A stretch of 64,000 nucleotides of DNA from Oleiphilaceae bacterium (lineage in GTDB: Bacteria > Pseudomonadota > Gammaproteobacteria > Pseudomonadales > Oleiphilaceae). Location: assembly GCA_018334495.1 (NCBI GenBank), contig JAGXLV010000004.1, positions 5,669-69,668 on the forward strand, read 5' to 3'. Position 1 is the stretch's first letter. Every line of letters begins with the position of its first letter. A program made the position numbers and the translations under genes. Shown piece after piece: positions 23,062 to 50,854 of the stretch. The notes beneath the pieces are model-generated. The model was not told the DNA's origin and searched no databases. It saw nothing but the letters and a program-made list of their open reading frames with translations.

Positions 23062-24748
23062 GGACGCAACGTCCAGCCCGCAGAGTGATTTTACGCTCAG
23101 CCAGCGCCAGTAATGATTCATGGTGTGTTGCGAACACGAGCGTACGCCCCTGGTCTGCAAACGTTTTAAGGGAGGCCAGAAGCAGTTTCTCGGTGTCGGC
23201 ATCCAGCCCTGCGGTTGGCTCGTCCATCAGAATGAGTTCGGCCGGGCTCAGAAACAGGCGCGCCAGGCTAAGGCGGCGGGCCTGGCCGCCCGAAAGACCG
23301 ATACCGGCCTCCGAGATGGGGCTATCCAGGCCTTGAGGTCGGGATGCCAGGGTCCCGGTCAGGCCGACAAAGGCCAGGGCTTCTTTCATTTCACCGGTGC
23401 TGGCGTGAGGAGCGGTCAATCGCAATTGGTCTTTCCAGGTGCCGTGGGCTATGTAGGGGGACTGTCCCAGCCATCCAATGATCTGGTCACCGGGCCTGCG
23501 GCCAAAAACAGCCACACTTCCGGACGTTGCCGGCATAAAACCGGCCAGGAGGTGGAGCAGGGTACTTTTACCGCCCCCGGAAGGGCCGGTGAGGGCTAAA
23601 CGCTCGCCTTTATCAATGGTCATCGACACATCATTGAGGCCCACTCGGCCGTCGCTGAATATAACCCCGGCATGATTCAATGCGATGACGTCCGGGGAGG
23701 CTATGGCCTCTTCATGGGCGGTGTTCTCTGTTTGCGGCCGGGTTGGCTCGCTGTCAGACAGACGCATTACAATCAGCTCAGCCGCGCCAAGCGCGGCGGC
23801 GCGATCGTGATAATGCTGTGCCAGCTGGCGTAAAGGTTGAAAGAATTCAGGCGCCAGCAGAAGAATAAACAACCCGCTGAACAGCGTCAGTTCCGAAGCC
23901 GGGCCGAAATCAATGTAGCCCAGCAAGCCAAAACCGATATACATGGCGATAACAGCGATACTGACTGAAGCAAAAAATTCGAGTACCGCTGATGACAGGA
24001 AGGCGACCCGAAGTGTTTTCATGGTAATGCGGCGGAAGTCGTCGGAGCGAGCCTGCAGGATGTCGGCTGCGGGCCCGGTCTGGTTGAAAAGCTGAAGGGT
24101 TGTCAGGCCACGGACACGGTCGAGGAACTGTCCGGAAAGTCGGCCCATGGTCTGAAAATGACGACGCTGCAATGACTCAGCGCCCATTCCCACCAGGGCC
24201 ATGAAGAGCGGGATCAGCGGTGCTGCCACTAACAGGAAAAGCGCTGCCAGCCAATCAAGGCCAATGACAGTAACCAGTATCGCCAGCGGTATCAGAACAG
24301 CCAGCTGAATCTGCGGCAGGTAACGCGCAAAATAGCCGTGCAGGGCTTCGACCTGATCGAGCCATTCGCGGCTGAGCGTTGCGGCAGACTCGTCCAGCAA
24401 GCGCAAAGGGCCCGCTTTGTGCCACGCCGCCAAAAGCTGACGCCTGGCATTATCCCGCACCGTCCGGCTGCCGTGTGCCATGAACCGGGACTGGACACCC
24501 TGCGATACCGCTCTCAGAGCAAGGGCCAGAAGGAGCAGACCAAACCAGCCGGTCAGTTGGTCAACGGGCCGTTCCAGCACGATTGCGGCATGAATAATGT
24601 ATGCCAGGCTGCCCATTTGCACGATGGTCAACAACCCGGCCAGCGTGCCCATAATGACCGCGCCCCTTATGGGGATGCGAGCCTCCCGGGCGAGCTCCTG
24701 CAACCAGTTTTTTGCTTCAGTGCCGGTTTTTGATGAGGTCCCGCTCAA
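23054..24748 (-). CDS. cydD: Thiol reductant ABC exporter subunit CydD
   Basis: GYFARYLPQ, APLIPLFM, TLRVAFLSS, LAPEFFQPLR..YHDR and GPSGGGKS motifs. Confidence 0.92.
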   Translation of the reverse strand: MSGTSSKTGTEAKNWLQELAREARIPIRGAVIMGTLAGLLTIVQMGSLAYIIHAAIVLERPVDQLTGWFGLLLLALALRAVSQGVQSRFMAHGSRTVRDNARRQLLAAWHKAGPLRLLDESAATLSREWLDQVEALHGYFARYLPQIQLAVLIPLAILVTVIGLDWLAALFLLVAAPLIPLFMALVGMGAESLQRRHFQTMGRLSGQFLDRVRGLTTLQLFNQTGPAADILQARSDDFRRITMKTLRVAFLSSAVLEFFASVSIAVIAMYIGFGLLGYIDFGPASELTLFSGLFILLLAPEFFQPLRQLAQHYHDRAAALGAAELIVMRLSDSEPTRPQTENTAHEEAIASPDVIALNHAGVIFSDGRVGLNDVSMTIDKGERLALTGPSGGGKSTLLHLLAGFMPATSGSVAVFGRRPGDQIIGWLGQSPYIAHGTWKDQLRLTAPHASTGEMKEALAFVGLTGTLASRPQGLDSPISEAGIGLSGGQARRLSLARLFLSPAELILMDEPTAGLDADTEKLLLASLKTFADQGRTLVFATHHESLLALAERKITLRAGRCVHE

Positions 24749-24749
24749 T

Positions 24750-25757
24750 TCAGTGATAGCCCTGGTCGGCTCGCACCTTGCCGCGGAACACCCAATAGGT
24801 CCAGGCGGTATAGGCCAATACTACTGGCACCACAAACACTACGCCAATCAGGAGAAATAGCTGGGACTCAGGCGCCGAGGCGGCATCGTAGACGGTGTAA
24901 CTCGGCGGCACGACATAAGGCCAGCGGCTGACCAGAAGCGCGAGATAGGTGAAGATGAACAGGCCCATGGTGGCCACAAACGGCGTCCCCTCGGTTCGAT
25001 TGCGAACAGCGCGGAAAACCAGAAAGGCACATACCAGCGTCAGTGCTGGCAATATCCAGATAATTGTCAGATTTGAAAACCAGCGCTCGCGCACAGCTTC
25101 TTCGACGAAGGGCGTCCAGATCCCGATAATACCGAAAACCACCAGAACAGCGATCAATAGCGGGGTGGTGATCTTATAGGCCCAGTCTTGCAAATGGCCC
25201 TGGGTCTTCAGAATCAGCCAGGTAGAGCCAAGCAGTGCGTAGCCTGCCAGAAGGCCCAAGCCCGTTAGCACGGTAAAGGGTGTCAACCAGTCCAAAGCAC
25301 CTCCCGTGTAGATCCTGCCGGCGGTCTCAAAGCCCTGAACATAAGCGCCGACCACGGCGCCCTGGGCGAAGGCGGCAAGGGTGGAGCCACCCGCGAATGC
25401 CCAGTTCCAGAGATAACGTGAGGTTCGGGCTTTAAAACGGAATTCAAAGGCCACCCCCCTGAAAATAAGACCTGCCAGCAGGAGGAATACGCCGATATAA
25501 AGTGCCGGCAGCAAGATGGAATAAACCAGAGGGAAAGCGGCAAGCAGGCCGGCTCCGCCGAGAACAAGCCATGTTTCATTACCGTCCCAGACTGGCGCGA
25601 CTGAATTCATCATGATGTCGCGAGACTCTTCATCAGGCGCGAACGGGAAGAGAATGCCAACACCCAGGTCAAAACCGTCCATCAACACGTACATGATGAC
25701 GCCGAAGCCAATGATGAAAGACCAGACCAAAACCAGATCGAGGGTTTCCATAATCAA
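24750..25757 (-). CDS. cydB: Cytochrome bd ubiquinol oxidase subunit II (CioB-like)
   Basis: DGFDLGVG, PVWDGNETWL and RGVAFEFR motifs. Confidence 0.95.
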   Translation of the reverse strand: MIMETLDLVLVWSFIIGFGVIMYVLMDGFDLGVGILFPFAPDEESRDIMMNSVAPVWDGNETWLVLGGAGLLAAFPLVYSILLPALYIGVFLLLAGLIFRGVAFEFRFKARTSRYLWNWAFAGGSTLAAFAQGAVVGAYVQGFETAGRIYTGGALDWLTPFTVLTGLGLLAGYALLGSTWLILKTQGHLQDWAYKITTPLLIAVLVVFGIIGIWTPFVEEAVRERWFSNLTIIWILPALTLVCAFLVFRAVRNRTEGTPFVATMGLFIFTYLALLVSRWPYVVPPSYTVYDAASAPESQLFLLIGVVFVVPVVLAYTAWTYWVFRGKVRADQGYH

Positions 25758-25765
25758 TAATCTCC

Positions 25766-27202
25766 TTATCTGGCGGGTTTGCCGTGGTTGGAAGGTTCCT
25801 GGTCGTCGCCAAACTCGAATGGCACGTGGGTCGCAGACAGGGGCCGCTTGGGGCGATCACTTTCATATTCTTCTGTGATGTGGCTGTCTTCCATGCCGGT
25901 GTACAGTACCCGCAGCAGATAATAGATGCCCGCCGAGAATACCACGGCGTAGACAAGGACATAGCCAATCAGACTAAACAATGCCATGCCGCCGGTGAGT
26001 GAGGGGGTCACAGACTGCGCGTGAGTCATCATGCCCTGGACCAACCAGGGTGCGCGGCCGATCTCAGTGACGAACCAGCCGGCCAATACGGCAATAAAAG
26101 GCGTAATACTCATGAATCGCAGCGATTGCAGAAACCAGGGCGTGCGCCAGTACCGTCCACCGGACCTTAAAACCAGCCCGGCAACAGAAACAGCAATCAT
26201 GAGCAATCCAATACCAACCATAACGCGGAACGACCAGAATACGATGCCCACCGGGGGTTGCTCCGCTCTCGGCACTTCATTCAAACCCGGGACAACGCCA
26301 TCCCACTCATGCGTGAGAATGTAACTGGCCAGCCCGGGTATGCCAATCTCGAAATGATTGGTCTGGTTCTCCTGGTCAGGCCAGGCGAACAGTAGCAGCG
26401 GCACATTGCTGGATGTTTCCCAGTTGCCTTCCATGGCCGCAACTTTCATGGGTTGATGTTCCAGGGTGTTCAAGCCGTGAAAATCACCCAGTATTGCCTG
26501 GGCCGGCGCAATGATCAGTAACAACCATAAACAGATCGAGAGGGCCTTTCGATTGGTTTCGACCTCACGACCACGAAGCAGGTACCAGGCACTGACCCCG
26601 GCCACCACGAATCCGCCGGTCAGGAACGAAGCCAGGCCCATGTGGGCAAAACGGTAGTAGAAGGACGGGTTGAAAATAGCTTCGCTCCAGGACACCACGT
26701 GAAAGATGCCGTCGCGTACTTCAACGCCAGCAGGCGTCTGCATCCAGCTGTTAGCCGACAGAATCCAGAACGACGAAATGAAGGTGCCCAGCGCAACCAT
26801 CAGCGCGGCCAGGAGGTGAACTCCTGGGGGCACCTTGTCGCGTCCAAACAGGAGCACCCCAAGAAACGCGGCCTCAAGGAAAAAAGCGGTGACGACCTCG
26901 TAACTGAGTACCGGCCCCATGAAATTGGCGGTAGCCTGGGCGAAATTGCTCCAGTTGGTTCCGAACTGAAACGACATGACGATGCCAGAGACCACACCCA
27001 TACCGAAAACCACGGCAAAAACCTTGGTCCAGAAGCCGGATAACCTTTGCCAAAGCGGGTTGCCGGTTTTGAAAGCAAGGGCCTCCAACAAGGCCACGAA
27101 AGAAGCCAGACCAATGGTGAAGACCGGGAAAATGGCGTGAAACGAGATAATAAATGCAAACTGAATGCGGGATAAAAAAAGGGGATCAAGCTCCACAGGC
27201 AC
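25766..27202 (-). CDS. cydA: Cytochrome bd ubiquinol oxidase subunit I (short Q-loop, CioA-like)
   Basis: FHAIF, FQFGTNW, EAAFLG, HQPMKVAAMEG and EIGRAPW motifs; 478 aa. Confidence 0.95.
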   Translation of the reverse strand: MPVELDPLFLSRIQFAFIISFHAIFPVFTIGLASFVALLEALAFKTGNPLWQRLSGFWTKVFAVVFGMGVVSGIVMSFQFGTNWSNFAQATANFMGPVLSYEVVTAFFLEAAFLGVLLFGRDKVPPGVHLLAALMVALGTFISSFWILSANSWMQTPAGVEVRDGIFHVVSWSEAIFNPSFYYRFAHMGLASFLTGGFVVAGVSAWYLLRGREVETNRKALSICLWLLLIIAPAQAILGDFHGLNTLEHQPMKVAAMEGNWETSSNVPLLLFAWPDQENQTNHFEIGIPGLASYILTHEWDGVVPGLNEVPRAEQPPVGIVFWSFRVMVGIGLLMIAVSVAGLVLRSGGRYWRTPWFLQSLRFMSITPFIAVLAGWFVTEIGRAPWLVQGMMTHAQSVTPSLTGGMALFSLIGYVLVYAVVFSAGIYYLLRVLYTGMEDSHITEEYESDRPKRPLSATHVPFEFGDDQEPSNHGKPAR

Positions 27203-27449
27203 CTCCTATCAGGGCGAATAAGATGCAAGCAACGTTAAAACTCTACCCAGCACCTTAGATTATTTGAGCATAATAATATAACTAAAATGAATTATCAATA
27301 AATGATAGATGCTCACCAATTATCAGTCCTGGTATGTTCCCCATGCAATGCCCATTGACCGGTAAATGTATGACAATATAGGTGCTTGAATTCAGGAAAA
27401 TTGTAAAACCACGCCAACGACTCAAGGTGTTATGCGTAGCGGAGAAAAC

Positions 27450-28085
27450 ATGAGCTTTTACAACGACTTGATACTGCCGCACCTGATCAATAGCGCCTGC
27501 TCCATGGGCCAGGTTATGAAATTGCGAAACCAGGTTGTGCCGCAGAGCAGGGGAGTGGTGCTGGAGGTGGGTATTGGTTCCGGTATCAACTTACCTTTAT
27601 ACGACCCGGACAAGGTCGAGCTGGTCTACGGCCTGGAGCCTTCAGAGGGCATGCGTCGCAAGGCTCAGTCCAACCTCAAAAAATCGGCTGTACCCGTGCG
27701 ATGGCTGGATCTTCCCGGTGAGGAAATTCCCCTCCAGGACAATTCAGTCGACACCCTGCTGCTGACCTTTACGCTCTGCACGATTCCCGATTGGAAAACC
27801 GCCTTGAAGCAAATGGCCCGAGTGCTGCGTCCGGATGGACAATTACTGTTCCTTGAGCACGGCCAGTCGCCACAAAGCAACGTACGCAAATGGCAGGATC
27901 GCATCACGCCGGGCTGGAAAAAGATCGCCGGCGGCTGCCATCTCAATCGGCCAATTGATGAGCTTATCGAGCAGGGAGGCTTTCATATTGAGCAACTTGA
28001 CACCTTCTATATGCCCAAAGCCCCGAAAGTCGCCGGGCATCTGTTCCTGGGCCGTGCGGTTAAAGAGAGTGCCCCGCCTGCTTAA
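27450..28085 (+). CDS. Class I SAM-dependent methyltransferase (METTL7-like)
   Basis: LEVGIGSG, FTLCTIPD, FLEHG and GGCHLNR motifs; GGAG RBS before the ATG at 27450. Confidence 0.85.
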   Translation: MSFYNDLILPHLINSACSMGQVMKLRNQVVPQSRGVVLEVGIGSGINLPLYDPDKVELVYGLEPSEGMRRKAQSNLKKSAVPVRWLDLPGEEIPLQDNSVDTLLLTFTLCTIPDWKTALKQMARVLRPDGQLLFLEHGQSPQSNVRKWQDRITPGWKKIAGGCHLNRPIDELIEQGGFHIEQLDTFYMPKAPKVAGHLFLGRAVKESAPPA

Positions 28086-28127
28086 TGCGCTGATACAGTG
28101 TGAATCGTAAATTATTGGGCAATAAAA

Positions 28128-28156
28128 TTGCGTTCCCCGCTGTCGCCTTATACACT
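28128..28156 (+). promoter_or_regulatory. Sigma70-type promoter of tRNA-Leu
   Basis: TTGCGT-N17-TACACT followed by a GC-rich discriminator-like sequence. Confidence 0.55.
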
Positions 28157-28179
28157 CTTTGCCCGCAGTTTCCCCGAAT

Positions 28180-28266
28180 GCTCCGGTGGTGGAATCGGTA
28201 GACACTACAGACTTAAAATCTGTTGCCCGTCAGGGCGTGCCGGTTCAAGTCCGGCCCGGAGCACCA
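28180..28266 (+). tRNA. tRNA-Leu (anticodon TAA)
   Basis: GCTCCGG..CCGGAGC acceptor stem, ACAGA-CTTAAAA-TCTGT anticodon arm, long variable arm, GGTTCAAGTCC T-loop and encoded CCA. Confidence 0.95.
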
Positions 28267-36329: not shown

Positions 36330-36705
36330 TTCACAGGCTCGTCATTGAACGTCAAAGTTGTTTGATACTTACGGCGATTCTGGCTTGAGTCGGATTGATC
36401 CCATCGGGTCTGCGAATATCAGGATTGTCGCACAGTTCAAATGTCTCCGTCTTTATCTTACGGTCTCGCGAGAACCCGCCCCGCCCGGTGTCCAATAACA
36501 GTATTTCCGGGACTTCGGATGGGTTTTCAGTGGCTAAGGCTGGTAAACTGCCAGGCGCTCCTACTTTGAAGGCTGACGCCTTGTAAAAGTCGCCTGGTAT
36601 TTGGTTAACAAGCCGTCACGGAAATACCCCAAGAAACAGGCACAGGCATCGCAACGCTGTGCTAACGTCTGCATCTGTTCCATTTGCTAAAAGTTGATTG
36701 TGTCG

Positions 36706-37500
36706 ATGAGTAATCCCAAACATACCCTCTTCTGGATGACGCTGTTTCTGGGGGTGGTGCTGGCCGTTTGTGTTTTGATCCATGCGCCTCTGACAACTGC
36801 CTTCATGGCGAACTGGGTTTTTAACCTTCTGATTGTGTCTGTTTTGCTGATTGGTATCGGTTTAACCTACCGGCAGGTGTTTGTACTCTTTCCCGAAATG
36901 CGTTGGATTGCCCAGTTCAGAACAGGGCATGCGGGTCTGTCTGTCTTGCAAGAGCCCCATCTTTTAAAGCCACTTGCCAGGCAACTGGGTGACGATTACA
37001 AGCGCGACCAATTCTCCCTCTCGACCATGTCATTGCGTACGGTTCTCGACGGTATCCACAGTCGCATGGATGAACAGCGCGAAATCACCCGTTACTTTAT
37101 CAGTCTTCTGGTGTTTCTGGGCCTGTTGGGTACTTTCTGGGGCTTGCTGGGAACCATCAATGCTGTCGGCGGTGTCATTACCGGCCTCGATATGGGGCAG
37201 GGTGATTTCGCAGACGTCTTCGCCGAATTGCAATCCGGGCTTTTGACACCGCTGGAGGGTATGGGCACCGCCTTCAGTTCCTCCCTGCTGGGGCTCGGCG
37301 GGTCACTGATTCTGGGGTTTCTGGATATTCAGGCCGGCCACGCCCAGAACCGTTTCTACGATGGCCTGGAAGAGTGGCTGACAGGGGTAACGCACCTGGT
37401 CGATACGGTGGACAAGGTGGACACCCGGAAAGACGACGATCTTGCCCGCGTCCTGGAGGAAAATCAGGCATTGAAAGTTCAACTTGCCAGCAAGGAGTAA
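36706..37500 (+). CDS. MotA/TolQ/ExbB-type proton-channel protein (non-flagellar)
   Basis: Four TM segments with LGLLGTFWGL and GMGTAFSSSLLG; start moved to the ATG at 36706. Confidence 0.75.
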   Translation: MSNPKHTLFWMTLFLGVVLAVCVLIHAPLTTAFMANWVFNLLIVSVLLIGIGLTYRQVFVLFPEMRWIAQFRTGHAGLSVLQEPHLLKPLARQLGDDYKRDQFSLSTMSLRTVLDGIHSRMDEQREITRYFISLLVFLGLLGTFWGLLGTINAVGGVITGLDMGQGDFADVFAELQSGLLTPLEGMGTAFSSSLLGLGGSLILGFLDIQAGHAQNRFYDGLEEWLTGVTHLVDTVDKVDTRKDDDLARVLEENQALKVQLASKE

Positions 37501-39251: not shown

Positions 39252-39794
39252 TCAGACACTACAATCGGCCTCATGACTGCGGACAAAGGTGTCGCCCACA
39301 TCTATACCCTCAGCGGCAAAAAATCCGCGATTCATTTCCAGGGCCTTGTTAAAGGAAACCCCGGCGGGGTATTTCGGACACTCGTGGGCGCCGGCGGTGC
39401 AGGGAGTCATGGCGTTGATCGCCAGTATCTGGTCGTTCGGCCCAATATAGGCAATATCCAGAGGCAGGTGGGTCCGGTACATCCAGAAGGCAGTGGAGGG
39501 TGGCTGGAGTCGGTCATAAACAAACAGCATGCCGTCATGAGTTCCGAGGTTTTTGCGCCCCATTAAACCCTGCTGGCGCTTCGCCGGCGAATCGGCCACT
39601 TCAATATCAATCACGACTTTGACCGAATCGCCAACCAGGCAGGCGTGTTCCGGGGGTGTTGTCTTCTCGACGTCGGCTTCCGCCGTGACGGAAATGACCA
39701 ACAGGTAAAATGCTATCAGAAGACAACTCACCGGCCACCTGTGGCTGTCGACAGAAATCTTTCGGTAAAAACAATTTACCATTGTCTCGCTCAT
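39252..39794 (-). CDS. DUF192 family protein
   Basis: [37 protein letters not shown] and ALEMNRG motifs; the ATG at 39794 overlaps the permease stop. Confidence 0.88.
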
Positions 39795-40552
39795 GACCGC
39801 AGCCGGTACCCGGTTTTGAAAATCCACCAGATGGTGGTCATGCAGGCAAGCAGGAAAAACACGATCATGGCGACGCTGACGCCAATATGAATATCGGAAA
39901 CGCCATAGAAGGCCCACCGGAAGCCGCTGATCAGGTAAACCACCGGGTTGAGCAGGGTAATTTTCTGCCAGATATCCGGTAGCATATCGATAGAATAGAA
40001 GGTGCCGCCCAGGAAGACCAGAGGCGTGACAATCATCAAGGGTATGACTTGCAGCTTTTCGAAACCGTCCGCCCAGATGCCGATAATAAAGCCGAACAGA
40101 CTGAAAGTTATCGCGGTGAGTACCAGGAAGGCCAGCATCCAGAAGGGGTGCATGACCTCGTAGGGCACGAACAGGCGGGCGGTTAGAAGAATGATGATGC
40201 CCAGCATGGTGGATTTTGTGGCCGCGGCGCCGACATAACCGATAACCACCTCCAGGTAGGACACAGGAGCGGACAGCACTTCGTAGATCGTGCCGGAAAA
40301 CTTGGGCATATAGATGCCAAATGAGGCGTTGGAAATGCTTTGCATCAGCAGAGACAGCATGACCAGGCCGGGAATAATGAAAGCCCCGTAACTGATGCCG
40401 TCGATATCGCCCATGCGGGAACCGATCGCCGAGCCGAAGACGACAAAATAGAGTGTGGTTGAGATGACCGGAGAGGCCACACTCTGCATGAGGGTGCGCC
40501 ACATGCGGGCCATTTCGAACTTGTAGATTGCGCGTATGCCGTAAATATTCAT
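39791..40552 (-). CDS. ABC-2 type permease (YadH-like)
   Basis: Six TM segments with [16 protein letters not shown] and [13 protein letters not shown]. Confidence 0.9.
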
Positions 40553-41478
40553 GATTTGTTCTCGTTGACCAGGTCCACGAAAATATCCTCCAGGGAGCTT
40601 TCCCGCGTCTGGATGTCGCGGAAGTCGATGCCCTGTTCGCCCAGATGACGCAACAGGCGCGCGACGCCGGCTTGTTCCCTCTGGGCATCGAAGGTATAGA
40701 CCAACTCATAGCCGTTGACCGAAAGTTCCAGCGGTTCGTCCCTGAGGCTTTCCGGCACACTGGCGAGGGGGTGCTGAAGGTGCAAGCGGAGCTCTTTGTT
40801 GCCGAGCTTGGCCATCAGCCGCTCCTTGTCCTCGACCAGGATGATCTCGCCGTCCCGAATCACACCGATGCGGTCAGCCATCTCCTCGGCTTCTTCGATG
40901 TAATGGGTGGTCAGAATAATGGTGACGCCGTTATCCCGCAGCTTGCGCACCATGGCCCACATGTCTTTCCTGAGTTCCACGTCGACGCCGGCGGTGGGTT
41001 CGTCAAGAAACAGGATTTGCGGCTCGTGGGAAAGTGCCTTGGCGATCATGACCCGTCGTTTCATGCCGCCGGACAGCGACATGATGCGGTTATTGCGTTT
41101 GTCCCAGAGCGAAAGATCCTTCAGAACCTTTTCTATGTGGGCGGGGTTCGGTGGTTTGCCGAACAGGCCACGGCTGAACGATACGGTGTTCCAGACCTTT
41201 TCAAAGGAGTCGGTACTGAGCTCCTGCGGCACCAGGCCAATGGCTTTGCGTGCCCCCCGGTAATCTTTGATGACGTCGTGCCCTGCCGCCAATACGCGGC
41301 CTTCACTGATATTGACGATACCGCAGATCATGCTGATCAGGGTGGTTTTGCCGGCGCCATTGGGGCCGAGAAGCGCAAAGATCTCACCCTTCTGGATATC
41401 CAGATTGATGTTTTTGAGGGCGTGAAACCCGCCTTCGTAGATCTTGCTTACCTGTTGAATGGAAATGTCCGGTTGCAA
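40549..41478 (-). CDS. ABC transporter ATP-binding protein (YadG-like)
   Basis: [25 protein letters not shown] and TTHYIEEAE motifs; TTG start. Confidence 0.92.
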
Positions 41479-41514: not shown

Positions 41515-42981
41515 CTAGCAGGTCGGCATGGTCTGTAGAGCCAGTTTGCGTCTGATAAAACGCGAAAGGGCATCGATGCCGATGTTCAGCATTGCCGTGA
41601 TAAGAATCAGGATCATTGCCCGGTCAAACCGGATATCCTGAATCGCACTGTCGATGTAGAAGCCCAGCGTGGCGATGCCCAGAATCCCCAGAATCGCCGT
41701 TTCGCGCATGATGATTTCCCATCGGTAGAACAGAAACGCAAGAAAGGAGCGGTAAACTCTCGGCGTCAGTTCGTAGGAATAACGGTTCAGGCCTACTGGC
41801 GCATCGGCCCGTAATTTAATGCCACTGCTCTGACGGCCGATCAGATGCCCGATAATGCCGCCGTTATGAAGGGCCAGGGCCACCGCTGCCGGCAACATGG
41901 AGGGGCCCCACAACTGCAAAAGGATATAGGCGAGGATGTATTCCGGCGTCGACCGCGCGACCACCAGAAACACATTGCCGAAGATACGCCGAATCGGCCC
42001 GCCAAAATGTGTGGATATCAGGGGAAATGCGGCCAGTGCGATCAGACCGGTGGTCACCAGGGCGATCTGGGTCAGGATAAGGGTATTCCAGATTCCCGGC
42101 AGCGCCGAATGCACCATGAGATCACCAAACCAGCTCATGAGGCTGCCAAAACCTTCACTGTTTCGAATCGGGCTCGGAACTATGTCTTCGGTAAAGAAGC
42201 GGGTGACATTGCCCCAGACAATAGGCATACCGTCCCCCAGGAAAAACGGCGCCGACAGAACATAGACTGGCAAAAGTTTGGGCCGGACCCAGATCGGTAT
42301 GGTGGCAATGAGCACATAAAATACCAGTAAAAGCGCGCCAGCCTCGGAATAGTGTGTCTGCGAAAATGCACTCTCAAGATAAAAGCCCATGGTGGGCAAG
42401 CCGACAAAGCCCAGGATGGCGCTGGAGCGCAGGCCGCACTCCAGCCGATAGGATGTATAAGTGCGTAGCTGTAGCCAGCAGTCCGGTACGCGGGCGAAGA
42501 AGAACGCCGATACGATACCCGTGCCGAACGGCAACAGCTTCCGGGGTTCCGGGTCGGCCTCGTCCAGAATTTCCGAATACACTTTGGCAAAAATACCGGC
42601 GTAGGGAATGGCAATGGCCAGGACGCCCGTTAATGGATGGAAGCCGAAAAATTGCAGAAAAATGAGCGCCCAGAAAAGCTCGTGAATAGCGCGAATGAAG
42701 GCGCAGAAAAGCCGCACGGCACGAAAACGGTAAACCAGTGACAGCAGAAAACCACTAAGACTGCCGAGCGCAACGCCGGTAAAGGCAAAGGCCACTGTGC
42801 GAAGCACGGCGGTATACAGGCCTTCAATACTCAGGAAATCGGGCGTCACCATGCCCATGAAAAAGCGCCCGAGATCAAGCCAGGGATTGGTTGCAGTTAT
42901 TGCCATATCGGCGAACAGGAGGCAGCCGAACGCTATGGCGATAAACAGGAAGCTGACACGGACAGTGGGGGACGAAGGCAT
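41515..42981 (-). CDS. PhnE/PtxC-like double-domain ABC permease (putative selenate uptake)
   Basis: RAIHEL.WAL, AIAIPYAG.FAKVYSEILDE, ECGLRSSAILG and WEIIMRETAILG motifs; true start at the ATG at 42981. Confidence 0.85.
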   Translation of the reverse strand: MPSSPTVRVSFLFIAIAFGCLLFADMAITATNPWLDLGRFFMGMVTPDFLSIEGLYTAVLRTVAFAFTGVALGSLSGFLLSLVYRFRAVRLFCAFIRAIHELFWALIFLQFFGFHPLTGVLAIAIPYAGIFAKVYSEILDEADPEPRKLLPFGTGIVSAFFFARVPDCWLQLRTYTSYRLECGLRSSAILGFVGLPTMGFYLESAFSQTHYSEAGALLLVFYVLIATIPIWVRPKLLPVYVLSAPFFLGDGMPIVWGNVTRFFTEDIVPSPIRNSEGFGSLMSWFGDLMVHSALPGIWNTLILTQIALVTTGLIALAAFPLISTHFGGPIRRIFGNVFLVVARSTPEYILAYILLQLWGPSMLPAAVALALHNGGIIGHLIGRQSSGIKLRADAPVGLNRYSYELTPRVYRSFLAFLFYRWEIIMRETAILGILGIATLGFYIDSAIQDIRFDRAMILILITAMLNIGIDALSRFIRRKLALQTMPTC

Positions 42982-42988
42982 GGTTCGC

Positions 42989-43642
42989 TCAGTACAGCGG
43001 TAGAATGTCGGTCTCGGACAGGCGCTCGCTGGGCTCATCGAGTGCCACCTGGCCATCGAGAATACCGACGATGCGATCACTGTATCTGAGCGCCAGTTCG
43101 ACATCGTGCAAGGCGATAACGGAGGTGCCAAAGGATTCCCGCAAAAGCCCCATGACGACATGGGCGAGAGGACCGTCCAGAGCCGATACTGGCTCATCGG
43201 CCAACAACACGGGCGCGCGACTGTAGATCCCCCGGGCGATGGCTGTGCGCTGGCGCTGGCCCCCGGAAAGACTCGCCACTGGCGACCACTGTTTTTCACC
43301 AATGCCAAGCTGGCCCAGCAATGGCTCTATTTCGTCACGGTCCCGCTTGAACGGCTTTACCAGGGTGGCCAGGTTGTACCAGCTCGAACGCTCGTTGAGC
43401 CGGCCCATGAAAACGTTATGAAATACAGATAACGACTGCACCAGCCCGAGTTCCTGGGGAACATAGGCCACCGGGCCCAAGGCCTCCTGGTACAACAGAC
43501 GTATCAGGGTCGACTTGCCCGCACCGCTTTTCCCGACCAGAGCAATGCGCTCACCTGGCTCAACCGAAAGGGAAAGGGGCCCAAGGACCCGCTTCCCGCC
43601 AAAGGAGGCCGTAATGCCATAAAGCTGTAGTGCTGTCATCAA
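42989..43642 (-). CDS. PhnC-like ABC ATP-binding protein
   Basis: GKSGAGKS, LSGGQRQR and LLADEP motifs. Confidence 0.9.
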   Translation of the reverse strand: MMTALQLYGITASFGGKRVLGPLSLSVEPGERIALVGKSGAGKSTLIRLLYQEALGPVAYVPQELGLVQSLSVFHNVFMGRLNERSSWYNLATLVKPFKRDRDEIEPLLGQLGIGEKQWSPVASLSGGQRQRTAIARGIYSRAPVLLADEPVSALDGPLAHVVMGLLRESFGTSVIALHDVELALRYSDRIVGILDGQVALDEPSERLSETDILPLY

Positions 43643-44511
43643 TCCAGAATTCCTACTTCTTCACCGACCTTCTGGATGGGCTCGTAATCGTCGTTGGACG
43701 CGGGGATGAAGGATGAGCGCGGAAAGCTGTTCAGCAGTTCCTTGTCCTCAAGGTTCAGCAGCGCATCGGTGACGCGTTGTTTGAAGCCTTCACCGAACCG
43801 GTCATCGACACCGGCGCGGATGGTCCACTGGTAATTGGGGTAGGGCGGAGTCGTCCAGATGATACTGACCTCGTCGGTATCGATGTTGTCGTTCGCCAAC
43901 TCCTTCTCCCAGACTTTGAAATTAATGGCCCCGGTTTCATAGGTGCCGGACTCCACGAGCCTCAACGTACGTGTATGGTTACCGCTGTACCCGACGCGTG
44001 AAAAGACGTCATCAGGCGACTCGCCAAAAGCCTCGCGAATATGGAATTCCGGCATCAGGCGGCCGGATGTGGAGCCCTTGGAGCCGAAGGTGAAGGTTTT
44101 ACCCCGCAATTCTTCGGAGAGCTCATCCATGGGTTCCAGACTGGTGCTTTTGTGAGCGATGAAATGGGACACAAAATTAGAGGCGTCTTCGGTACCCTGG
44201 GCGATGGCTTCGGAACCCGGCACCAGGTTTCGTGCCTGAACGCCGGACAGACCGCCAAACCAGGCCAGCTGAACCTGGTTGTTGCGGAACGCCGAGATGG
44301 CCGCAGCGTAGGATTTCACCGGAATGTAGCGCACCTCCACGTCCAGCTCCTCTGAAAGGTAGTCCGCCATGCCACGGAAACGTTCGATCAGCTTGGTTTC
44401 ATCTTCGTCCGGAATCGCCGTGAAAATGAAAGTTTCCGCTGCGAGGGGCATACTGGCCAGGGTCACGGCGCCCAGTGCGCCAATCATGCTTTTTTTCAAT
44501 TTGGTAAACAT
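43639..44511 (-). CDS. Putative selenate ABC transporter substrate-binding protein (PhnD-like)
   Basis: Signal peptide; FTAIPD, AWFGGLSGVQAR and FGSKGSTSGRLMP match the family usually found beside selD/senB. Confidence 0.82.
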   Translation of the reverse strand: MFTKLKKSMIGALGAVTLASMPLAAETFIFTAIPDEDETKLIERFRGMADYLSEELDVEVRYIPVKSYAAAISAFRNNQVQLAWFGGLSGVQARNLVPGSEAIAQGTEDASNFVSHFIAHKSTSLEPMDELSEELRGKTFTFGSKGSTSGRLMPEFHIREAFGESPDDVFSRVGYSGNHTRTLRLVESGTYETGAINFKVWEKELANDNIDTDEVSIIWTTPPYPNYQWTIRAGVDDRFGEGFKQRVTDALLNLEDKELLNSFPRSSFIPASNDDYEPIQKVGEEVGILD

Positions 44512-44743
44512 CGTGCTTTCTCTCGTTCCGTTGGTGCCAAGGGCACATGGATTTTGAATCGCCGGGGAGGGGCGATCCTTGCTTTAAAGATCGGTCCCCT
44601 AGGATACTCGCTCTGGCATCAAGCGTTAACCTTTACGCCAGGGCTTTTCGTTTGGTTCGTTTTTTTACACACTATTTGCAATAACCCTAGGCAAAAGCCC
44701 GGCTTACAGTGGCGGAGCCGATCAAAGTGAGCAAGCAACATTT

Positions 44744-45733
44744 ATGAAACTGATCCTGATGACGCCTGCACCGCCAGGCTCCAAAGCCGGAAACAGAGCC
44801 ACAGCGGAACGCTGGGCAGCCCTGTTGCACGAGGCCGGCCACGACATTGATATTCTTACCGAATATCACGGTCAGGCGGCGGACGCCATGATCGCACTGC
44901 ACGCCTGGCGTAGCCACGATGCCATTATGGCCTTCCGCCAGGAACACCCGAAGGCGCCGATGATTACGGTTCTGGCCGGCACCGACGTGTACCGTTTTCA
45001 GCACAGCCATCCGGACGAAACCCTGGCGTCCATGGCAGCCAGTCATGTTCTGATCGGGCTTCACCGGGAGGTTGCACAGGATATTCCCGCCAGACTCCAC
45101 GACCGGCTGGCCATCGTGCTGCAATCTGCCGACGTTCCCCCGCGTGATTTACCGGCGGCAAGAAAAGATAACCGGTACTTTGATGTCTGTGTCATCGGTC
45201 ACTTGCGCGAAGAAAAAGACCCGCTGCGCGCGGCCTACGCTTCTCGGTTGTTGCCCACCGACTCGAACATTCGCATCCTCCAGGCAGGCAAGGCCCATAA
45301 CGAAGACTGGTCCGAGGCTGCCCGATGTGAAGAACGGGAAAATTCCCGTTACCAATGGCTGGGCGAACTCGGTAAAGAGGCCACCCAGGCATTGATGATT
45401 CAGTCAGACGCCATGGTCATCAGCTCGGTGATGGAGGGTGGCGCCAATGTCGTTTCCGAAGCCTGCCGCGCTGGCCTGCCGGTCATCGCCTCGGATATCG
45501 CCGGCAATCGTGGGCTGCTTGGCAAGCAATATCCCGGATACTTCGCCGTCCGCAACGATGCCGCTCTCGCCCATTTGCTGTTGCGTGCCGAAACCGAATC
45601 GGATTTCCTGCAGGCACTGCGTCGGCACGTTGAAAGCGAAGCGGCCAATTTCACCCCCGCCATGGAGCAAAAAGCCCTGTTGGCGGCGCTGAATCAGGCC
45701 TTCAGAACAATTGGTTCAATCGCTTCGCCCTGA
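44744..45733 (+). CDS. senB: Selenosugar synthase SenB (selenoneine-pathway glycosyltransferase)
   Basis: GNRATAERWA, MIALHAWRSH, VLAGTDVY, GHLREEKDP, SSVMEGGANV.SEA and YPGYF motifs; adjacent to selD. Confidence 0.85.
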   Translation: MKLILMTPAPPGSKAGNRATAERWAALLHEAGHDIDILTEYHGQAADAMIALHAWRSHDAIMAFRQEHPKAPMITVLAGTDVYRFQHSHPDETLASMAASHVLIGLHREVAQDIPARLHDRLAIVLQSADVPPRDLPAARKDNRYFDVCVIGHLREEKDPLRAAYASRLLPTDSNIRILQAGKAHNEDWSEAARCEERENSRYQWLGELGKEATQALMIQSDAMVISSVMEGGANVVSEACRAGLPVIASDIAGNRGLLGKQYPGYFAVRNDAALAHLLLRAETESDFLQALRRHVESEAANFTPAMEQKALLAALNQAFRTIGSIASP

Positions 45734-47964
45734 GGCAGAATGCGGCCAATGATCGCGGTCTCCGGGTAACCCAGCGCCTTGAGTTCCGCAACACAGGCGT
45801 CAGCCTTGTCCGCCGGTATGCTGGCCAGCAGGCCGCCCGCTGTCTGCGGGTCGAATATCAGCGGATAGCGTTCGTTATTGATCCATTCATCCTGGTTACG
45901 TATGCCGCGGCGAAGGCGTATGTTCGCGGGCTGAAGCGAGCTCAGGATGCCTGCCGCCGCCGTTTCCTCGGCACCCGGAAGAATCGGAATGGACGACAGC
46001 GAGAGCTCGGCGTCAACGCCGGAGGGCCGCGTCATCTCCACAAGGTGCCCAAGCAGGCCAAAGCCCGTGACGTCGGTACAGGCGCGCGAACCAAAACGGC
46101 TCAGGCACTCCGCAGCCGTCTTGTTGGACTGCATCATGGATTCCAGCGCCGAATCGATCCAGCGGCCCCGAGCCTTTAGCTGGGCGTGAGCAGCGAAGAG
46201 CGTTCCGGTGCCGATGGGTTTGGTCAACAGCAGAACGTCACCCGCCACCAGACCGCCTTTGCTCATGACTTTGTCCGGATCAATGTAGCCATTGACGGCA
46301 AAGCCCAGGGCCAGCTCCCGACCCTCACCGGTATGGCCGCCCACCAGGGCGCAGCCCGCCTCATTGAGCACATCCACAGCACCGGACATCATCTGGAAGA
46401 CGATGTCCTCGACCTTGGATTCGATACCGTAGGGCACGGTCGCCACTGCCGTTGCGCTCTGCGCGTGAGCGCCCATGGCAAACACGTCCCCCAGGCTGTG
46501 ATTGGCAGCCACCCGGCCAAAAACATAAGGATCATCGATAAAGGCACGGAAAAAGTCCACGGTATGAACCACGGCCTTGCCTGGCGGAACCGTCAAAACC
46601 GCGGCGTCGTCGGGGGCGTGCAGGCCGACGAGAATGTCGTCGCGCTCGATGGGCTTAAGGTTGGCTAGGGCCCGGGACAGAACAGTACTGCCGACCTTGG
46701 CGCCGCAGCCGCCGCAACGCATGGCGACAGCGGAGATGGCCTGGGCGGCTTCCTCGGGGTTCTGGGCGGCGGAAGTGTCGGGCAGGTTGCCTGTATCTGC
46801 CATTGCCGGGAGGTCGTTGAACTTCGACATGAATTGATGATCAATCCAGTCTTTCCAGTGCCACACCAGTTTGCCTGCGATGGCGAAGTCACCTCTTGAT
46901 GCGACCGCGAATTTGTCGCCGGTGCTGATCAGTGCCAGCCATTTTTTCTGGGGCTTGAACGGCTTTGCTTTGCGGCCCGTGGCGACACGTTTGAGATTGT
47001 CAGCCAGAGGACGGCCCTGGCGTACTGCAAACACGCCGGCTTTTTCGCGCGGGTGGTCGATCACATTGGCGATATCCCCCGCGGCAAAAATCCTGTCGTC
47101 GGTTTCCGTTTGCAGGGTGTCTCTAGTCAGAATAAAACCGTCGTCATCCAGCGCCAGCCCTGTTTTCTGGAGCCATTCCGGACCGCCGGCCCGGGTTACC
47201 CAAAGCACTTCGTCTGCATCCAGAATTTCGCCTGACTCGGTGGTTAACCGCTGCGCGTCAACATGGGTAACGGGCGCTCCCAGGTGAAGTCGGACCCCTC
47301 GTTCATGGAGCGTTTTTTCGAATTGCTGGCGAACCTTGTCGTTATGGGTTGGAAGCAGCTGGGGTGCGGCGTCGAACAAGTGGAAAGACAGCCTGCCCGG
47401 ATCGCCACCACGCTTGCTGATCTCCTCCCGCAGACGGTGCTGCATGGCCAGAGTCAGCTCCACACCGCCGGCACCAGCACCAACAACGGCCACAGTCATC
47501 GGGCCCTGATGATTCTCCAGCCTGGATAACAGCGCTACCCAACGGTCATTGAACCCCTGAATGGGCTTGACCGGTACGGCGTGATCCCGGGCGCCCGGCA
47601 CGTCCTGGACACGCGGGGCGGAGCCGATGTTGATGGACAGAAGATCGTAAGGCACCGAGGGCCGGTTCCGGCAATCCACCCGTTGCTCCGACCGGTTGAT
47701 CGCAACGGCTTCGTCGCGGTAGAAACGGGCACCAGCGAACTCCGCCAGTCGGCTGAGATCAATGTGAACTTCGTCATAACTGTAATGCCCGGCCACATAG
47801 CCGGGCAGCATGCCGGAGTAGGGCGTATGGGTATCCCGGCAGATCAGGGTCAGGCGCACGCCGAGCACGGGATTCATGGCAAAGCGTTTGAGAACACCTA
47901 CGTGACTGTGGCCTCCGCCAATGAGGACAATGTCACGTAGGACTGGCTGTTCGGATGTCTGCAT
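45694..47964 (-). CDS. selD: Selenide,water dikinase fused to an N-terminal FAD/pyridine-nucleotide oxidoreductase domain
   Basis: N-terminal GGGHSH, YSGMLPG and KAGVFAVRQG; C-terminal MRCGGCGAKV, DDAAV, TVDFF, TDVTGFGLLGH and DPQTAGGLL. Confidence 0.92.
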   Translation of the reverse strand: MQTSEQPVLRDIVLIGGGHSHVGVLKRFAMNPVLGVRLTLICRDTHTPYSGMLPGYVAGHYSYDEVHIDLSRLAEFAGARFYRDEAVAINRSEQRVDCRNRPSVPYDLLSINIGSAPRVQDVPGARDHAVPVKPIQGFNDRWVALLSRLENHQGPMTVAVVGAGAGGVELTLAMQHRLREEISKRGGDPGRLSFHLFDAAPQLLPTHNDKVRQQFEKTLHERGVRLHLGAPVTHVDAQRLTTESGEILDADEVLWVTRAGGPEWLQKTGLALDDDGFILTRDTLQTETDDRIFAAGDIANVIDHPREKAGVFAVRQGRPLADNLKRVATGRKAKPFKPQKKWLALISTGDKFAVASRGDFAIAGKLVWHWKDWIDHQFMSKFNDLPAMADTGNLPDTSAAQNPEEAAQAISAVAMRCGGCGAKVGSTVLSRALANLKPIERDDILVGLHAPDDAAVLTVPPGKAVVHTVDFFRAFIDDPYVFGRVAANHSLGDVFAMGAHAQSATAVATVPYGIESKVEDIVFQMMSGAVDVLNEAGCALVGGHTGEGRELALGFAVNGYIDPDKVMSKGGLVAGDVLLLTKPIGTGTLFAAHAQLKARGRWIDSALESMMQSNKTAAECLSRFGSRACTDVTGFGLLGHLVEMTRPSGVDAELSLSSIPILPGAEETAAAGILSSLQPANIRLRRGIRNQDEWINNERYPLIFDPQTAGGLLASIPADKADACVAELKALGYPETAIIGRILPQGEAIEPIVLKA

Positions 47965-48614
47965 CAGGTCACTTTTTTGGCTTCTGTGGACCAGTTGCTA
48001 AAGCCTCGTGAAGAAGAAAACGCCTTGAGCTTTTCCCGGTCTTCGTCAGACGGATTGGCAATCTGATCAATGGTTGTAATACCCGCGTCCTTCAGTTTTT
48101 TCTCGGTCGCAGGTCCGATGCCTTTCACTTGGGTCAGGCCAGTTCTGTCTGCCGCCGGCTTGGGAGCCGCGGGAGGGGTTTTTTTCTTCGGGGCCGGCGC
48201 TTTCTTTTCGGCCTTGGAAGGCAGAGCCTGTTCGGATTTTGAGGGCGAAGTTTCCGTCGGTTCACCCGGCAGATTGCCCTTCACTTTCTTGCCTGCTTTA
48301 CCGGTGGTTTTTTTGGCTTCTTTTTTGGCATCGCGAGCAGCAACGCCCAGGCGCTCCATCATGTTTTCCCGGAACTCGTAGAGTTCGTTGCGCCGTCGAT
48401 CCAGCTCCGCACTCAGGCGTTTCAATTCGCGCTCGCGCACCCGGTCAAAATCACCGGCCATTTTGCGTATGGGCTCTTCGATCTGGGCCTGCAGCGACTC
48501 GACTTTCTTGAGCGCCTTGCCGACCATTTTTTCGACCTTGGATGAGGTCTTCTCGAATTCCTTGTTAATGTCTTTAACGATCTTGTCCGTACCCTGTTTA
48601 CGTTTCTTCGCCAT
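47964..48614 (-). CDS. Coiled-coil / Lys-Ala-Pro linker / helix-hairpin-helix protein
   Basis: Helical N-terminus, KKAPAPKKK linker and LTQVKGIGPATEKKL HhH motif; the stop overlaps the selD ATG by 1 nt. Confidence 0.75.
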   Translation of the reverse strand: MAKKRKQGTDKIVKDINKEFEKTSSKVEKMVGKALKKVESLQAQIEEPIRKMAGDFDRVRERELKRLSAELDRRRNELYEFRENMMERLGVAARDAKKEAKKTTGKAGKKVKGNLPGEPTETSPSKSEQALPSKAEKKAPAPKKKTPPAAPKPAADRTGLTQVKGIGPATEKKLKDAGITTIDQIANPSDEDREKLKAFSSSRGFSNWSTEAKKVT

Positions 48615-48728
48615 GGTGACGACTCCTTATCCGAGGATTAACCTGCAAGAGCCCGACAGACACATACCACTTTAAAGCGTGATTGGATGACTGTTTCGGG
48701 ATTTTCTTCACGATCGGGCCTGCTTGGC

Positions 48729-49145
48729 TCAGGCGCTTTGTTTCAGGCCGGCAGTTGCTCTGTTACGGCGCGACCTTAATGACTGTTTTTTGGTCAGAAT
48801 GCGGCAGATCCGCTCAAGTCTGTTTTGAGTCGCGTTGGCGGAACGGGAGCCAAAGTCGATAAAATCAACCAAATAGAAAAAATTGCTACAGTGCTTTTTA
48901 CGTTCGGTGATCAATGCGCTCAAAGCCGAGGCGTCCACGTTTTCAAACGGCATGGTCATAACCAGATCCAGTAACAACGTGTCGCCCGGATTAAACAATT
49001 TGTCAGTCTTGAAAATACAGGTGTGTTGATCCAGGGCATAGACCTTTGCTTCGACTTTTTCAGTCCGAAACAGGCCCCGCTTCACTTTGAAGCGGGCGAT
49101 AAGGTCCGGGAGCGGCTGGTGGGAAGTTTGAATGCTATTTTTCAT
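48729..49145 (-). CDS. Hypothetical protein (possibly PilZ-like)
   Basis: Intact 138-aa ORF filling the gap; the fold is a guess. Confidence 0.55.
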   Translation of the reverse strand: MKNSIQTSHQPLPDLIARFKVKRGLFRTEKVEAKVYALDQHTCIFKTDKLFNPGDTLLLDLVMTMPFENVDASALSALITERKKHCSNFFYLVDFIDFGSRSANATQNRLERICRILTKKQSLRSRRNRATAGLKQSA

Positions 49146-49288
49146 GGTTCCGATTATTGCCGGGGCCGGCCGCTCAAGTGCGATCAGCGGCGCTACCCTC
49201 TGTTATTTGTATCAATTGCTCAACAATAGCCAGATCAAACACATTTGGCAAACACGGCTCTGCGCGTTCCCTTTGTTGCATTCGCCGG

Positions 49289-50854
49289 TCAACCTTCTTC
49301 GTTGGCTTCGTCCTCTGGAGAAGCACTCAGACTGAACTGAGGCGCTACATGATACATGTCGGTGCGCCGATCCTTGAGATTGGTGACTGAGCCCTCGTCG
49401 CGCACCAGGGTGAGCTTTTCCAGATCCAGGTCCGAGAACATCATCATTTCCGTATTGGGCGTGGTTTCGGCCATCACCGCATCATGGGGGAATGCAAAGT
49501 CAGACGGCGAGAACACAGAGGACTGGGCATACTGAATGTCCAGATTCTCGACTTTCGGAAGGTTGCCGACACTGCCCGTAATGACCACGTAGCACTCGTT
49601 TTCGATGGCTCTGGCCTGAGCGCAGTGACGCACCCGAAGGTAGCTGTTCTTGGTGTCGGTCCAGAAGGGCACGCAGATGATGTCGACGCCCTGGCTCGCC
49701 GCAAGACGGCCCAGTTCCGGAAACTCGATGTCGTAGCAGATCATGATGGCGACACGGCCGGCATCGGTTTCGAAGACTTCAAACTTGTCGCCGCCCTCGA
49801 TAACCCAGTCCCGGCGTTCGTGAGGCGTGATGTGGATTTTGCGCTGCTCATCGACCCGGCCATCGCGATGACAAAGGTAGGACACATTGAATACCCGGTC
49901 ATCGACCAGCAGCGGCATGGAGCCTGTCACAATGTTGATGTTGTAACTGACCGCCAGGTCCGACATGCGGTCGCGAAACTGTTTGGTGAAGCCTGCCAGA
50001 AAGCGCACCGCGCGGGTCTGATCGACCTGATCAGTCAAACCCATGAGGGGCGCGTTAAAAAACTCCGGAAAGAGCGCAAAGTCGCTTTTGTAATTCGACA
50101 GGGCATCAACGAAGTATTCGACCTGCTCCAGTACTTCCTCGACGGAGTGAAATTCCCGCATTTGCCACTGTACGGCGCCCATGCGTACCTGGGTTTTCCG
50201 GACATCCAGTATAGATGAGGGTGGGGTGTAGAGGATGTTGTTCCACTCGAGAAGAGTCGCGTAACCCAATGATTTCTCGTCTTCCGGCAGATATTTATGC
50301 ATCAGCCGCTTGACCTGGAACTCGTTGGAAAGCTGAAAACTCAGGATCGGGTCGTAGATCGCCTTGCGGTCTACTTGCTCTATATATTCGGCTGGCGAAA
50401 ACTGGTCGGCGTACTTGTGATAGCTGGGGATTCGACCACCGGCCAATATGGCACGCAGGTTCATGGAGCGGCAAAGCTCTTTGCGAGCCTCGTACAGACG
50501 CCGACCCAGTCGGTAGCCGCGATAATCCGGATGGATGAACACGTCCAGACCGTAAAGTGCGTCGCCGGTATCCTTATGCCGTATCTTGTCGTTGGCGAGG
50601 ATCAAGTCGTCATAGGTATGCGGGTTGCTGAACCGGTCGTACTTGACCTTCACGGTCAGGGCGACGGCGATCAACTCGCCTGAATCCTCGATGCAGATCT
50701 GTCCATCCGGAAACTGTTCTACCAGCTCCTTGATGGTTTCCCTGGGCCAGGCCCCGCCTATGTCATCGTAGATCCGATCCATCAGAATCTTGAGCTGGGG
50801 ATAGTCCTCCAGCTTGAGGTTTCTGAGGTTCAGTTGCAGATCTTCATGCGCCAT
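49289..50854 (-). CDS. Bifunctional GNAT acetyltransferase / carbon-nitrogen hydrolase
   Basis: N-terminal DVFIHPDYRGYRLGRRL, then the nitrilase triad FPEF, QRKIH and ICYDIEFPE. Confidence 0.9.
   Translation of the reverse strand: MAHEDLQLNLRNLKLEDYPQLKILMDRIYDDIGGAWPRETIKELVEQFPDGQICIEDSGELIAVALTVKVKYDRFSNPHTYDDLILANDKIRHKDTGDALYGLDVFIHPDYRGYRLGRRLYEARKELCRSMNLRAILAGGRIPSYHKYADQFSPAEYIEQVDRKAIYDPILSFQLSNEFQVKRLMHKYLPEDEKSLGYATLLEWNNILYTPPSSILDVRKTQVRMGAVQWQMREFHSVEEVLEQVEYFVDALSNYKSDFALFPEFFNAPLMGLTDQVDQTRAVRFLAGFTKQFRDRMSDLAVSYNINIVTGSMPLLVDDRVFNVSYLCHRDGRVDEQRKIHITPHERRDWVIEGGDKFEVFETDAGRVAIMICYDIEFPELGRLAASQGVDIICVPFWTDTKNSYLRVRHCAQARAIENECYVVITGSVGNLPKVENLDIQYAQSSVFSPSDFAFPHDAVMAETTPNTEMMMFSDLDLEKLTLVRDEGSVTNLKDRRTDMYHVAPQFSLSASPEDEANEEG

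Follow-up and report, generated by a model that had tools for sequence, protein, structure and literature searches.

The window analysed here, a stretch of 64,000 nucleotides from contig JAGXLV010000004.1 of an Oleiphilaceae bacterium (assembly GCA_018334495.1), carries at 41515-47964 a selenosugar locus in which senB is divergent from a PhnDCE-like importer and convergent with a gene fusing a flavin adenine dinucleotide (FAD)-dependent oxidoreductase to SelD. These gene calls and their geometry, including the 40-nt overlap between senB and the selD fusion, had been proposed in a first-pass annotation made from the letters alone, and both are borne out by the coordinates of the open reading frames (ORFs) and by hidden Markov model scores. 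The features are as follows.

41515..42981, minus strand: fused, duplicated PhnE-like ATP-binding cassette (ABC) permease (488 aa), which most likely starts at the ATG at 42981, within a mechanical ORF of 41515-43308.
42989..43642, minus strand: short PhnC-like ABC ATPase (216-217 aa); PF00005 ABC_tran, and TIGR02315 phnC at 153 bits, under the cut-off.
43639..44511, minus strand: periplasmic binding protein of the "putative selenate" PhnD-like family; TIGR04553 at 414 bits against a cut-off of 250, and PF12974.
44512..44743, no strand: divergent intergenic region between the importer operon and senB (232 bp).
44744..45733, plus strand: senB, selenosugar synthase (329 aa); TIGR04348 at 394.8 bits against a cut-off of 300.
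45694..45733, no strand: tail-to-tail overlap of senB and the selD fusion (40 nt, from ORF coordinates).
45694..47964, minus strand: senC, an FAD/NAD(P) pyridine-nucleotide-disulfide oxidoreductase domain fused to SelD (756 aa); TIGR03169 and TIGR00476.
47964..48614, minus strand: HhH-motif protein (216 aa), upstream of the selD fusion and sharing one base with it; PF14520 HHH_5.

We read this locus as one half of the ovoselenol (ovs) pathway, that of selenium uptake and selenosugar synthesis, in the dispersed layout of the Marinobacter type, with ovsA and ovsM on another contig, and we put the probability of this reading at about 85%. The first-pass annotation had seen no sulfoxide synthase or methyltransferase partner in the flanking 10+ kb, and this is true of OvsA-, SenA- and OvsM-type genes over the full length: no EgtB/OvoA/SenA/OvsA-type enzyme and no OvsM was found anywhere in the 64-kb window, a Pfam scan of its ~60 large ORFs returned no FGE-sulfatase or DinB_2 domain, and the best match of a six-frame tblastn search with OvsA and OvsM had only E = 0.005 over 41 aa. 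Two other methyltransferase genes were considered: the CMAS methyltransferase at 2246-3517 is not OvsM, and a 217-aa methyltransferase at 27432-28085 was rejected as a displaced OvsM, being UbiE/PmtA-like with no similarity to OvsM.

Probable partner genes were found in a metagenome. In the salt-lake run X1, 97% of the window's 31-mers are present and the window contigs have a depth of 19-26, with other Marinobacter-like contigs at a depth of 2-7. When the X1 contigs were mapped at 80% likeness onto the ovsA region of Marinobacter sp. QJJ-212 (CP085217.1), one contig of 2,087 bp with a depth of 24.6 proved collinear with ovsA-ovsM of that genome, and the syntenic contigs that flank it have depths of 19-21. 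The OvsA residues encoded by this contig were rebuilt from the listed base differences as two interior stretches and two loose ends, and the readable pieces of 67, 24, 10 and 9 residues (~110) are all identical to P0223 (MBS3803498.1), a protein from the metagenome-assembled genome (MAG) Oleiphilaceae bacterium. The contig agrees with P0223 at every tested position that separates this protein from its nearest relatives, P0151 and P0193 (T302, Y303, H311, T319 and L437), as well as in the discriminating strings YQKGQWQERL and RAGEAFNRF. Its motifs YPYMSTLQ and YRQAY mark the encoded enzyme as OvsA-type, and the contig continues with ATGAATCTGTATGAAACCGAC, which encodes MNLYETD, the N-terminus of OvsM. 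P0223 is located on an NCBI contig of 76,657 bp, and the window proteins on a different one of 97,381 bp.

A sister lineage shows the same pairing. The closest relative of P0223 is P0193 (83% identity), which is encoded on an ovsA-ovsM contig (L089). The JGI metagenome that contains L089 also contains L002, the sister contig of the window with senBC, and the gene context of P0193 is as in CP085217.1 (a CitMHS transporter, ovsA, ovsM, a Na/H exchanger and, further on, purD). These suggest that ovsA-ovsM very probably belongs to the same genome as the window. The first-pass proposal that the partner is encoded elsewhere is therefore supported by an OvsA-type gene with ovsM whose metagenome and depth are those of the window and which lies on another contig of very probably the same MAG. 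A senA or ovsA found elsewhere was also what that annotation had named as speaking against a new branch of selenium metabolism, and, as far as metagenomic data allow, such a gene is present and is of the OvsA type.

The placement of the organism is consistent with this. The SelD fusion, RecQ and a GNAT/CN-hydrolase protein of the window are 86-89% identical to those of Marinobacter sp. QJJ-212 and 92-97% identical to those on the sister contig, and the neighbourhood is syntenic with Marinobacter (OmpA, DUF6482, DUF192, ABC-2 exporter, importer, senB, selD fusion, HhH protein, small protein, CN-hydrolase, RecQ). As judged from its genes, the organism is a salt-lake relative of Marinobacter, and this placement is firm because proteins that evolve more slowly than SenB agree on it. 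SenB itself is fast-evolving in Marinobacter, with a between-species median of ~59% identity; the named relatives of the window SenB are all from Marinobacter (57-65% identity), and the best match, on a JGI metagenome contig, reaches 78%.

OvsA is a sister clade of SenA in aquatic gammaproteobacteria and has OvsM as its methyltransferase partner (Kayrouz et al. 2024, PMC11030361). In the same study, the four genes of the ovs pathway co-occur consistently, the ovs genes are clustered in Halomonas utahensis (Fig. 3 legend), and the OvsA motif Y398, M401, Q405, Q430 and A431 is set against Y, N and F in SenA, with three mutations at motif sites switching OvsA to hercynine (PMC11030361). We told OvsA from SenA by this published residue motif together with identity to PDB structures. 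NCBIfam was rejected for the purpose, since release 20 holds no OvsA model and all these proteins score as SenA: P0223, P0151 and the OvsA of locus L063 reach 425-434 bits on NF041186 SenA against a cut-off of 420. Because OvsA-type proteins just pass this cut-off, NCBI names them "selenoneine synthase SenA" in Marinobacter, and SenBs of the window type are likewise automatically named "selenoneine biosynthesis selenosugar synthase SenB". The product predicted by annotation, selenoneine, is wrong for Marinobacter.

We surveyed relatives in two sets of 80 loci each. The SenB-anchored set was obtained by scanning metagenome contigs with a SenB alignment; an EgtB sequence served only as a tblastn probe, and the matches relied on were then verified against NCBIfam and PDB. 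With this probe, a gene for a non-heme-iron sulfoxide or selenoxide synthase (NHISS) adjoins senB in 22 of the 80 loci, all among the more distant SenBs. After length and identity filters, 59 loci have no NHISS in reach, 20 have a SenA-like gene and one has OvsA with OvsM. The OvsA of this last locus (L063, gene at 5530-6876) is ~95% identical to the crystallised H. utahensis OvsA (8U41/8U42), and the SenBs linked to SenA are the most distant from the window SenB, at 49-57% identity. Among the proteins retrieved with OvsA as query are dozens from Marinobacter with 61-67% identity to the crystallised enzyme, and Y398, M401, Q405, Q430 and A431 are kept in 121/121 aligned homologues of H. utahensis OvsA, of which dozens belong to named Marinobacter species. 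SenB and OvsA were found on same-sized contigs in four cases (CP085217.1, M. sediminum, M. pelagius and M. subterrani); in the complete genome CP085217.1 (4.19 Mb), senB lies at ~2.94 Mb and ovsA-ovsM at ~0.43 Mb.

The OvsA-anchored set comprises one genome per species, nearly all of them Marinobacter (L090-L169). In none of these 80 genomes do senB, the selD fusion or the binding protein lie within 10 kb of ovsA. That Marinobacter has its ovoselenol genes split between loci was already known (PMC11030361), and the same split is reproduced in this analysis. Whereas ovsM adjoins ovsA in 32 of the 80 genomes, it is not within 10 kb of ovsA in the other 48, many of them core Marinobacter, so that the pathway can be split into three loci rather than two. 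For genome mining, these results carry two cautions: a senB/selD cassette lacking an adjoining EgtB-like gene is the rule in Marinobacter and not a sign of new chemistry, and automatic "selenoneine" names are given even though the partner enzyme is of the ovoselenol type.

Among characterised systems, the closest to the window is the dispersed ovs pathway of M. vinifirmus DSM 17747. Both belong to a genus-level lineage with a senB/senC cassette that no NHISS adjoins, and in M. vinifirmus ovsA and ovsM lie elsewhere on the chromosome and the partner has the M/Q/Q/A motif, as is probably the case for the window. The window differs in that it belongs to an uncultured salt-lake MAG, is known from genes alone, has a SenB only 57-65% identical to those of named Marinobacter with a T78A change, and has partner genes inferred from a metagenome rather than from a closed genome. 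M. vinifirmus produces ovoselenol, its ovsA mutant accumulates SeGlcNAc, and ovoselenol production that depends on senB, senC and ovsA has been demonstrated only in M. vinifirmus and H. utahensis (PMC11030361). The clustered ovs loci of H. utahensis (OvsA PDB 8U41/8U42), of the near-identical contig L063 and of L086 share with the window an importer divergent from senB and a fused SelD that is convergent at the far end, and the H. utahensis-type locus has an orthologous SenB 52% identical to that of the window; however, ovsA-ovsM (~2.15 kb) lies between senB and selD in these loci, whereas the two genes overlap by 40 nt in the window, with nothing between. One fully clustered locus of this kind, L086 (importer, senB, ovsA, ovsM and convergent selD fusion), itself comes from an Oleiphilaceae MAG.

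The sen cluster of V. paradoxus, senA-senB-senC (Kayrouz et al. 2022), shares with the window the SenB catalytic residues and chemistry, SelD as the source of selenophosphate, and the overlap of senB with selD, and sen clusters occasionally have a co-located "selenate" transporter as well. SenA, however, adjoins senB in V. paradoxus, is specific for hercynine and acts at C2 to give selenoneine, whereas the probable partner of the window is distant and OvsA-type. It was in a study of selenoneine that TIGR04348 was found through its frequent overlap with selD, and a putative selenate transporter was noted near many clusters there (10.1101/2022.04.13.486033). Our literature search found no third senB-dependent pathway.

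The window SenB matches the V. paradoxus SenB structures 8JJQ/8FBX with E = 6e-41 and, by homology to this characterised enzyme, is predicted to make a 1-seleno-sugar from selenophosphate and a UDP-sugar. Residues important by mutagenesis are known for V. paradoxus SenB, in which single alanine mutants of the selenophosphate pocket lose activity (PMC10891094). Residues N20, T23, H58, R61, T85, D86, R155, K158, E231 (EGGA motif) and E239 of that protein are kept in the window, where they are N17, T20, H53, R56, T80, D81, R155, K158, E231 and E239. The position equivalent to V. paradoxus T83 is Ala78 in the window (44975-44977) and Thr in the 48 other aligned SenBs, which makes the change unique (n = 49). 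An independent Logan assembly contains the identical SenB protein on a 4,149-bp contig, and Ala78 is thus not an assembly error.

The selD fusion is a genuine one. Its N-terminal domain matches TIGR03169 Nterm_to_SelD at 511 bits against a cut-off of 310 and its SelD domain matches TIGR00476 at 300.6 bits against a cut-off of 125, whereas TIGR04369 "fusion_not_SelD" is matched at 473 bits, under the cut-off of 700. The SelD loop, RCGGCGAKVGS, has Cys instead of Sec, with the Lys present, and the whole protein is 94% identical to its counterpart on L002 and 86-87% identical to those of the Marinobacter loci L003-L005. In all 58 loci that have both genes, senB and selD are convergent and most overlap by 4-82 nt; gaps of ~2.15 kb are seen only in L086 and L087, two copies of one locus with ovsA-ovsM inserted. 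The window therefore carries the standard senBC cassette.

The importer belongs, as predicted from its proteins, to a distinct transporter subfamily with a short ATPase and a fused duplicate permease, for which selenium binding is putative. With phosphonate and phosphite importers (PhnCDE/PtxABC) it shares the fold families PF12974 and TIGR01098, a PhnE-like permease and a PhnC-like ATPase. It differs from them in the unusually short ATPase, the fused duplicate permease and a binding protein of the separate family TIGR04553, which is defined by linkage to SelD; against the PhnD equivalog model the binding protein scores 141 bits and does not reach the cut-off of 261. The permease matches TIGR01097 PhnE in two stretches (194 bits, under the cut-off) and had zero Pfam matches in the scan of the window ORFs. 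Its translation from 42981 begins MPSSPTV, and this start is preferred because it gives the 488 aa at which the orthologues in L002, L003 and L004 are all called. The ATPase motifs are intact (Walker A GKSGAGKST, signature LSGGQRQR and Walker B), and the ATPases of all relatives seen are equally short (208-218 aa). The binding protein gene is divergent from senB in the dispersed Marinobacter loci and in the clustered ovs loci L063, L086 and L087, as it is in 7 of the 20 SenA-linked loci. Our literature search found no experimental ligand data for a TIGR04553 binding protein.

In the ovoselenol reading, the steps would run as follows. The importer would take in an inorganic selenium oxyanion, its putative ligand, and the FAD/NAD(P) oxidoreductase domain of the 756-aa fusion would presumably deliver reduced selenium to the SelD domain, which would convert selenide and ATP to selenophosphate. 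Selenophosphate synthesis is well established for SelD/SenC. SenB would then transfer the selenium of selenophosphate to UDP-GlcNAc to give 1-seleno-GlcNAc, a reaction established for the V. paradoxus enzyme, and SeGlcNAc was detected in M. vinifirmus (PMC11030361). OvsA, a non-heme-iron selenoxide synthase, would use the selenosugar to selenylate C5 of histidine, and OvsM would methylate N-pi to yield ovoselenol.

Several points weigh against this reading. The link between the window and ovsA consists of a shared metagenome, matching depth, a dominant Marinobacter-like population and parallel phylogeny, and not of a physical join or membership of one bin; only ~110 of the 448 OvsA residues and 7 OvsM residues were reconstructed; and the contig of P0223 is absent from the contig index and from the species-genome collection, where the best match is 79%. 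The ovoselenol product, the identity of the selenosugar and the ligand of the importer would all follow by orthology. T78A, moreover, lies in the selenophosphate pocket, where the equivalent change T83A lowers the activity of V. paradoxus SenB.

If OvsA or SenA were absent or unused, 1-seleno-GlcNAc could be the end product, serving in storage, detoxification or as an antioxidant, or could be passed to an acceptor not yet described. The first-pass annotation had entertained this as a new branch of selenium metabolism; the idea gained no positive support, and the split layout had been published for Marinobacter. Such a route would accord with the lack of any NHISS gene in the 64 kb and in reach of senB at 59 of the 80 SenB-anchored loci, and the physical separation would permit independent expression. 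SeGlcNAc accumulates in the M. vinifirmus ovsA mutant, and is thus tolerated by the cell, and many NHISS with divergent motifs remain uncharacterised (PMC11030361). Yet the metagenome of the window has an ovsA-ovsM contig of equal depth, which matches a protein of the NCBI MAG, OvsA occurs in the sister lineage and in all sampled Marinobacter, and the four genes co-occur consistently; these make an orphan route quite unlikely. A milder version, hardly more probable and still unlikely, keeps OvsA in the genome: because the importer, senB and senC are physically uncoupled from ovsA, as ovsM is in 48 of the 80 OvsA-anchored genomes, the selenosugar may be made when OvsA is not and may itself serve as a selenium store, antioxidant or detoxification product, or else feed a second, undescribed acceptor, and T78A could then mark a lineage-specific shift.

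It is highly improbable that the distant partner is instead a true SenA acting on hercynine, as the automatic NCBI names imply. The Marinobacter partner proteins do pass the SenA model, if narrowly (425-434 against 420 bits), and a SenA-type gene adjoins senB in 20 of the 80 SenB-anchored loci; however, the partner proteins have M401, Q405, Q430 and A431 instead of the Y/N/F motif that marks SenA, they share 61-67% identity with the crystallised OvsA (an OvsA-type protein matches SenA only at E = 3e-51), and their genes are followed by a TIGR04345 N1-methyltransferase gene, the ovsM orthologue of CP085217.1 scoring 304 bits against a cut-off of 170. The SenBs that are linked to SenA are, in addition, those most distant from that of the window. 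All selenium traits draw on SelD as their common selenium donor, and one may thus suppose that the fusion mainly serves selenocysteine or 2-selenouridine while senB is a decaying passenger weakened by the unique T78A change, but there is very little chance of this when senB is an intact ORF with an identical counterpart in an independent assembly, every other catalytic and pocket residue is kept, the convergent senB/selD cassette recurs in 58/58 loci, and selA, selB, selU and tRNA-Sec are all missing from the window. The 84-87-nt tRNA at 28180 was rejected as a tRNA-Sec, for it is tRNA-Leu(TAA), the sole tRNA of the window.

The remaining observations concern the surroundings of the locus genes. 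Between the importer and senB, a conserved operator or RNA element was considered and rejected: conservation of the intergenic region is seen only with the sister contig L002, and neither a consensus sigma-70 site nor an Rfam family was found in it. Seven base differences separate the window from the 4,149-bp metagenome contig, of which six cluster in 181 bp (43720-43900) of the binding-protein gene and result in one amino-acid change; the cluster could be local microdiversity or a recombination patch. On the other side, a same-strand block upstream of the selD fusion (47964-50854, minus strand) contains the HhH protein, a 138-aa protein of no family and the GNAT/CN-hydrolase fusion (521 aa); every Marinobacter locus seen has this block, the clustered ovs locus L086 lacks it, and a weak promoter-like site lies within it at 49251-49223 in the window. 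The HhH protein, which is present in L002-L005 and likewise not in L086, is a conserved neighbour in Marinobacter that probably lies outside the pathway.

Farther from the locus, the mechanical 502-aa ORF at 39252-40760 (minus strand) is not one gene. In relatives, this region is called as two genes in different frames, which encode a DUF192 protein of 170 aa and an ABC-2 permease of 253 aa (39791-40552); the gene for a DrrA-like ATPase comes next (40549-41478). Three large ORFs, 9009-10478 (minus strand, 489 aa), 36694-37500 (plus strand, 268 aa) and 931-1866 (minus strand, 311 aa), match no Pfam family at E <= 1e-5, and the 268-aa ORF corresponds to a gene of the sister contig with only a faint MotA/ExbB match. 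A cytochrome bd oxidase cluster is located at 21409-28266, where cydA, cydB and two CydDC-type ABC exporter genes are followed by the UbiE/PmtA-like methyltransferase gene and the tRNA-Leu(TAA) gene at 28180-28266.

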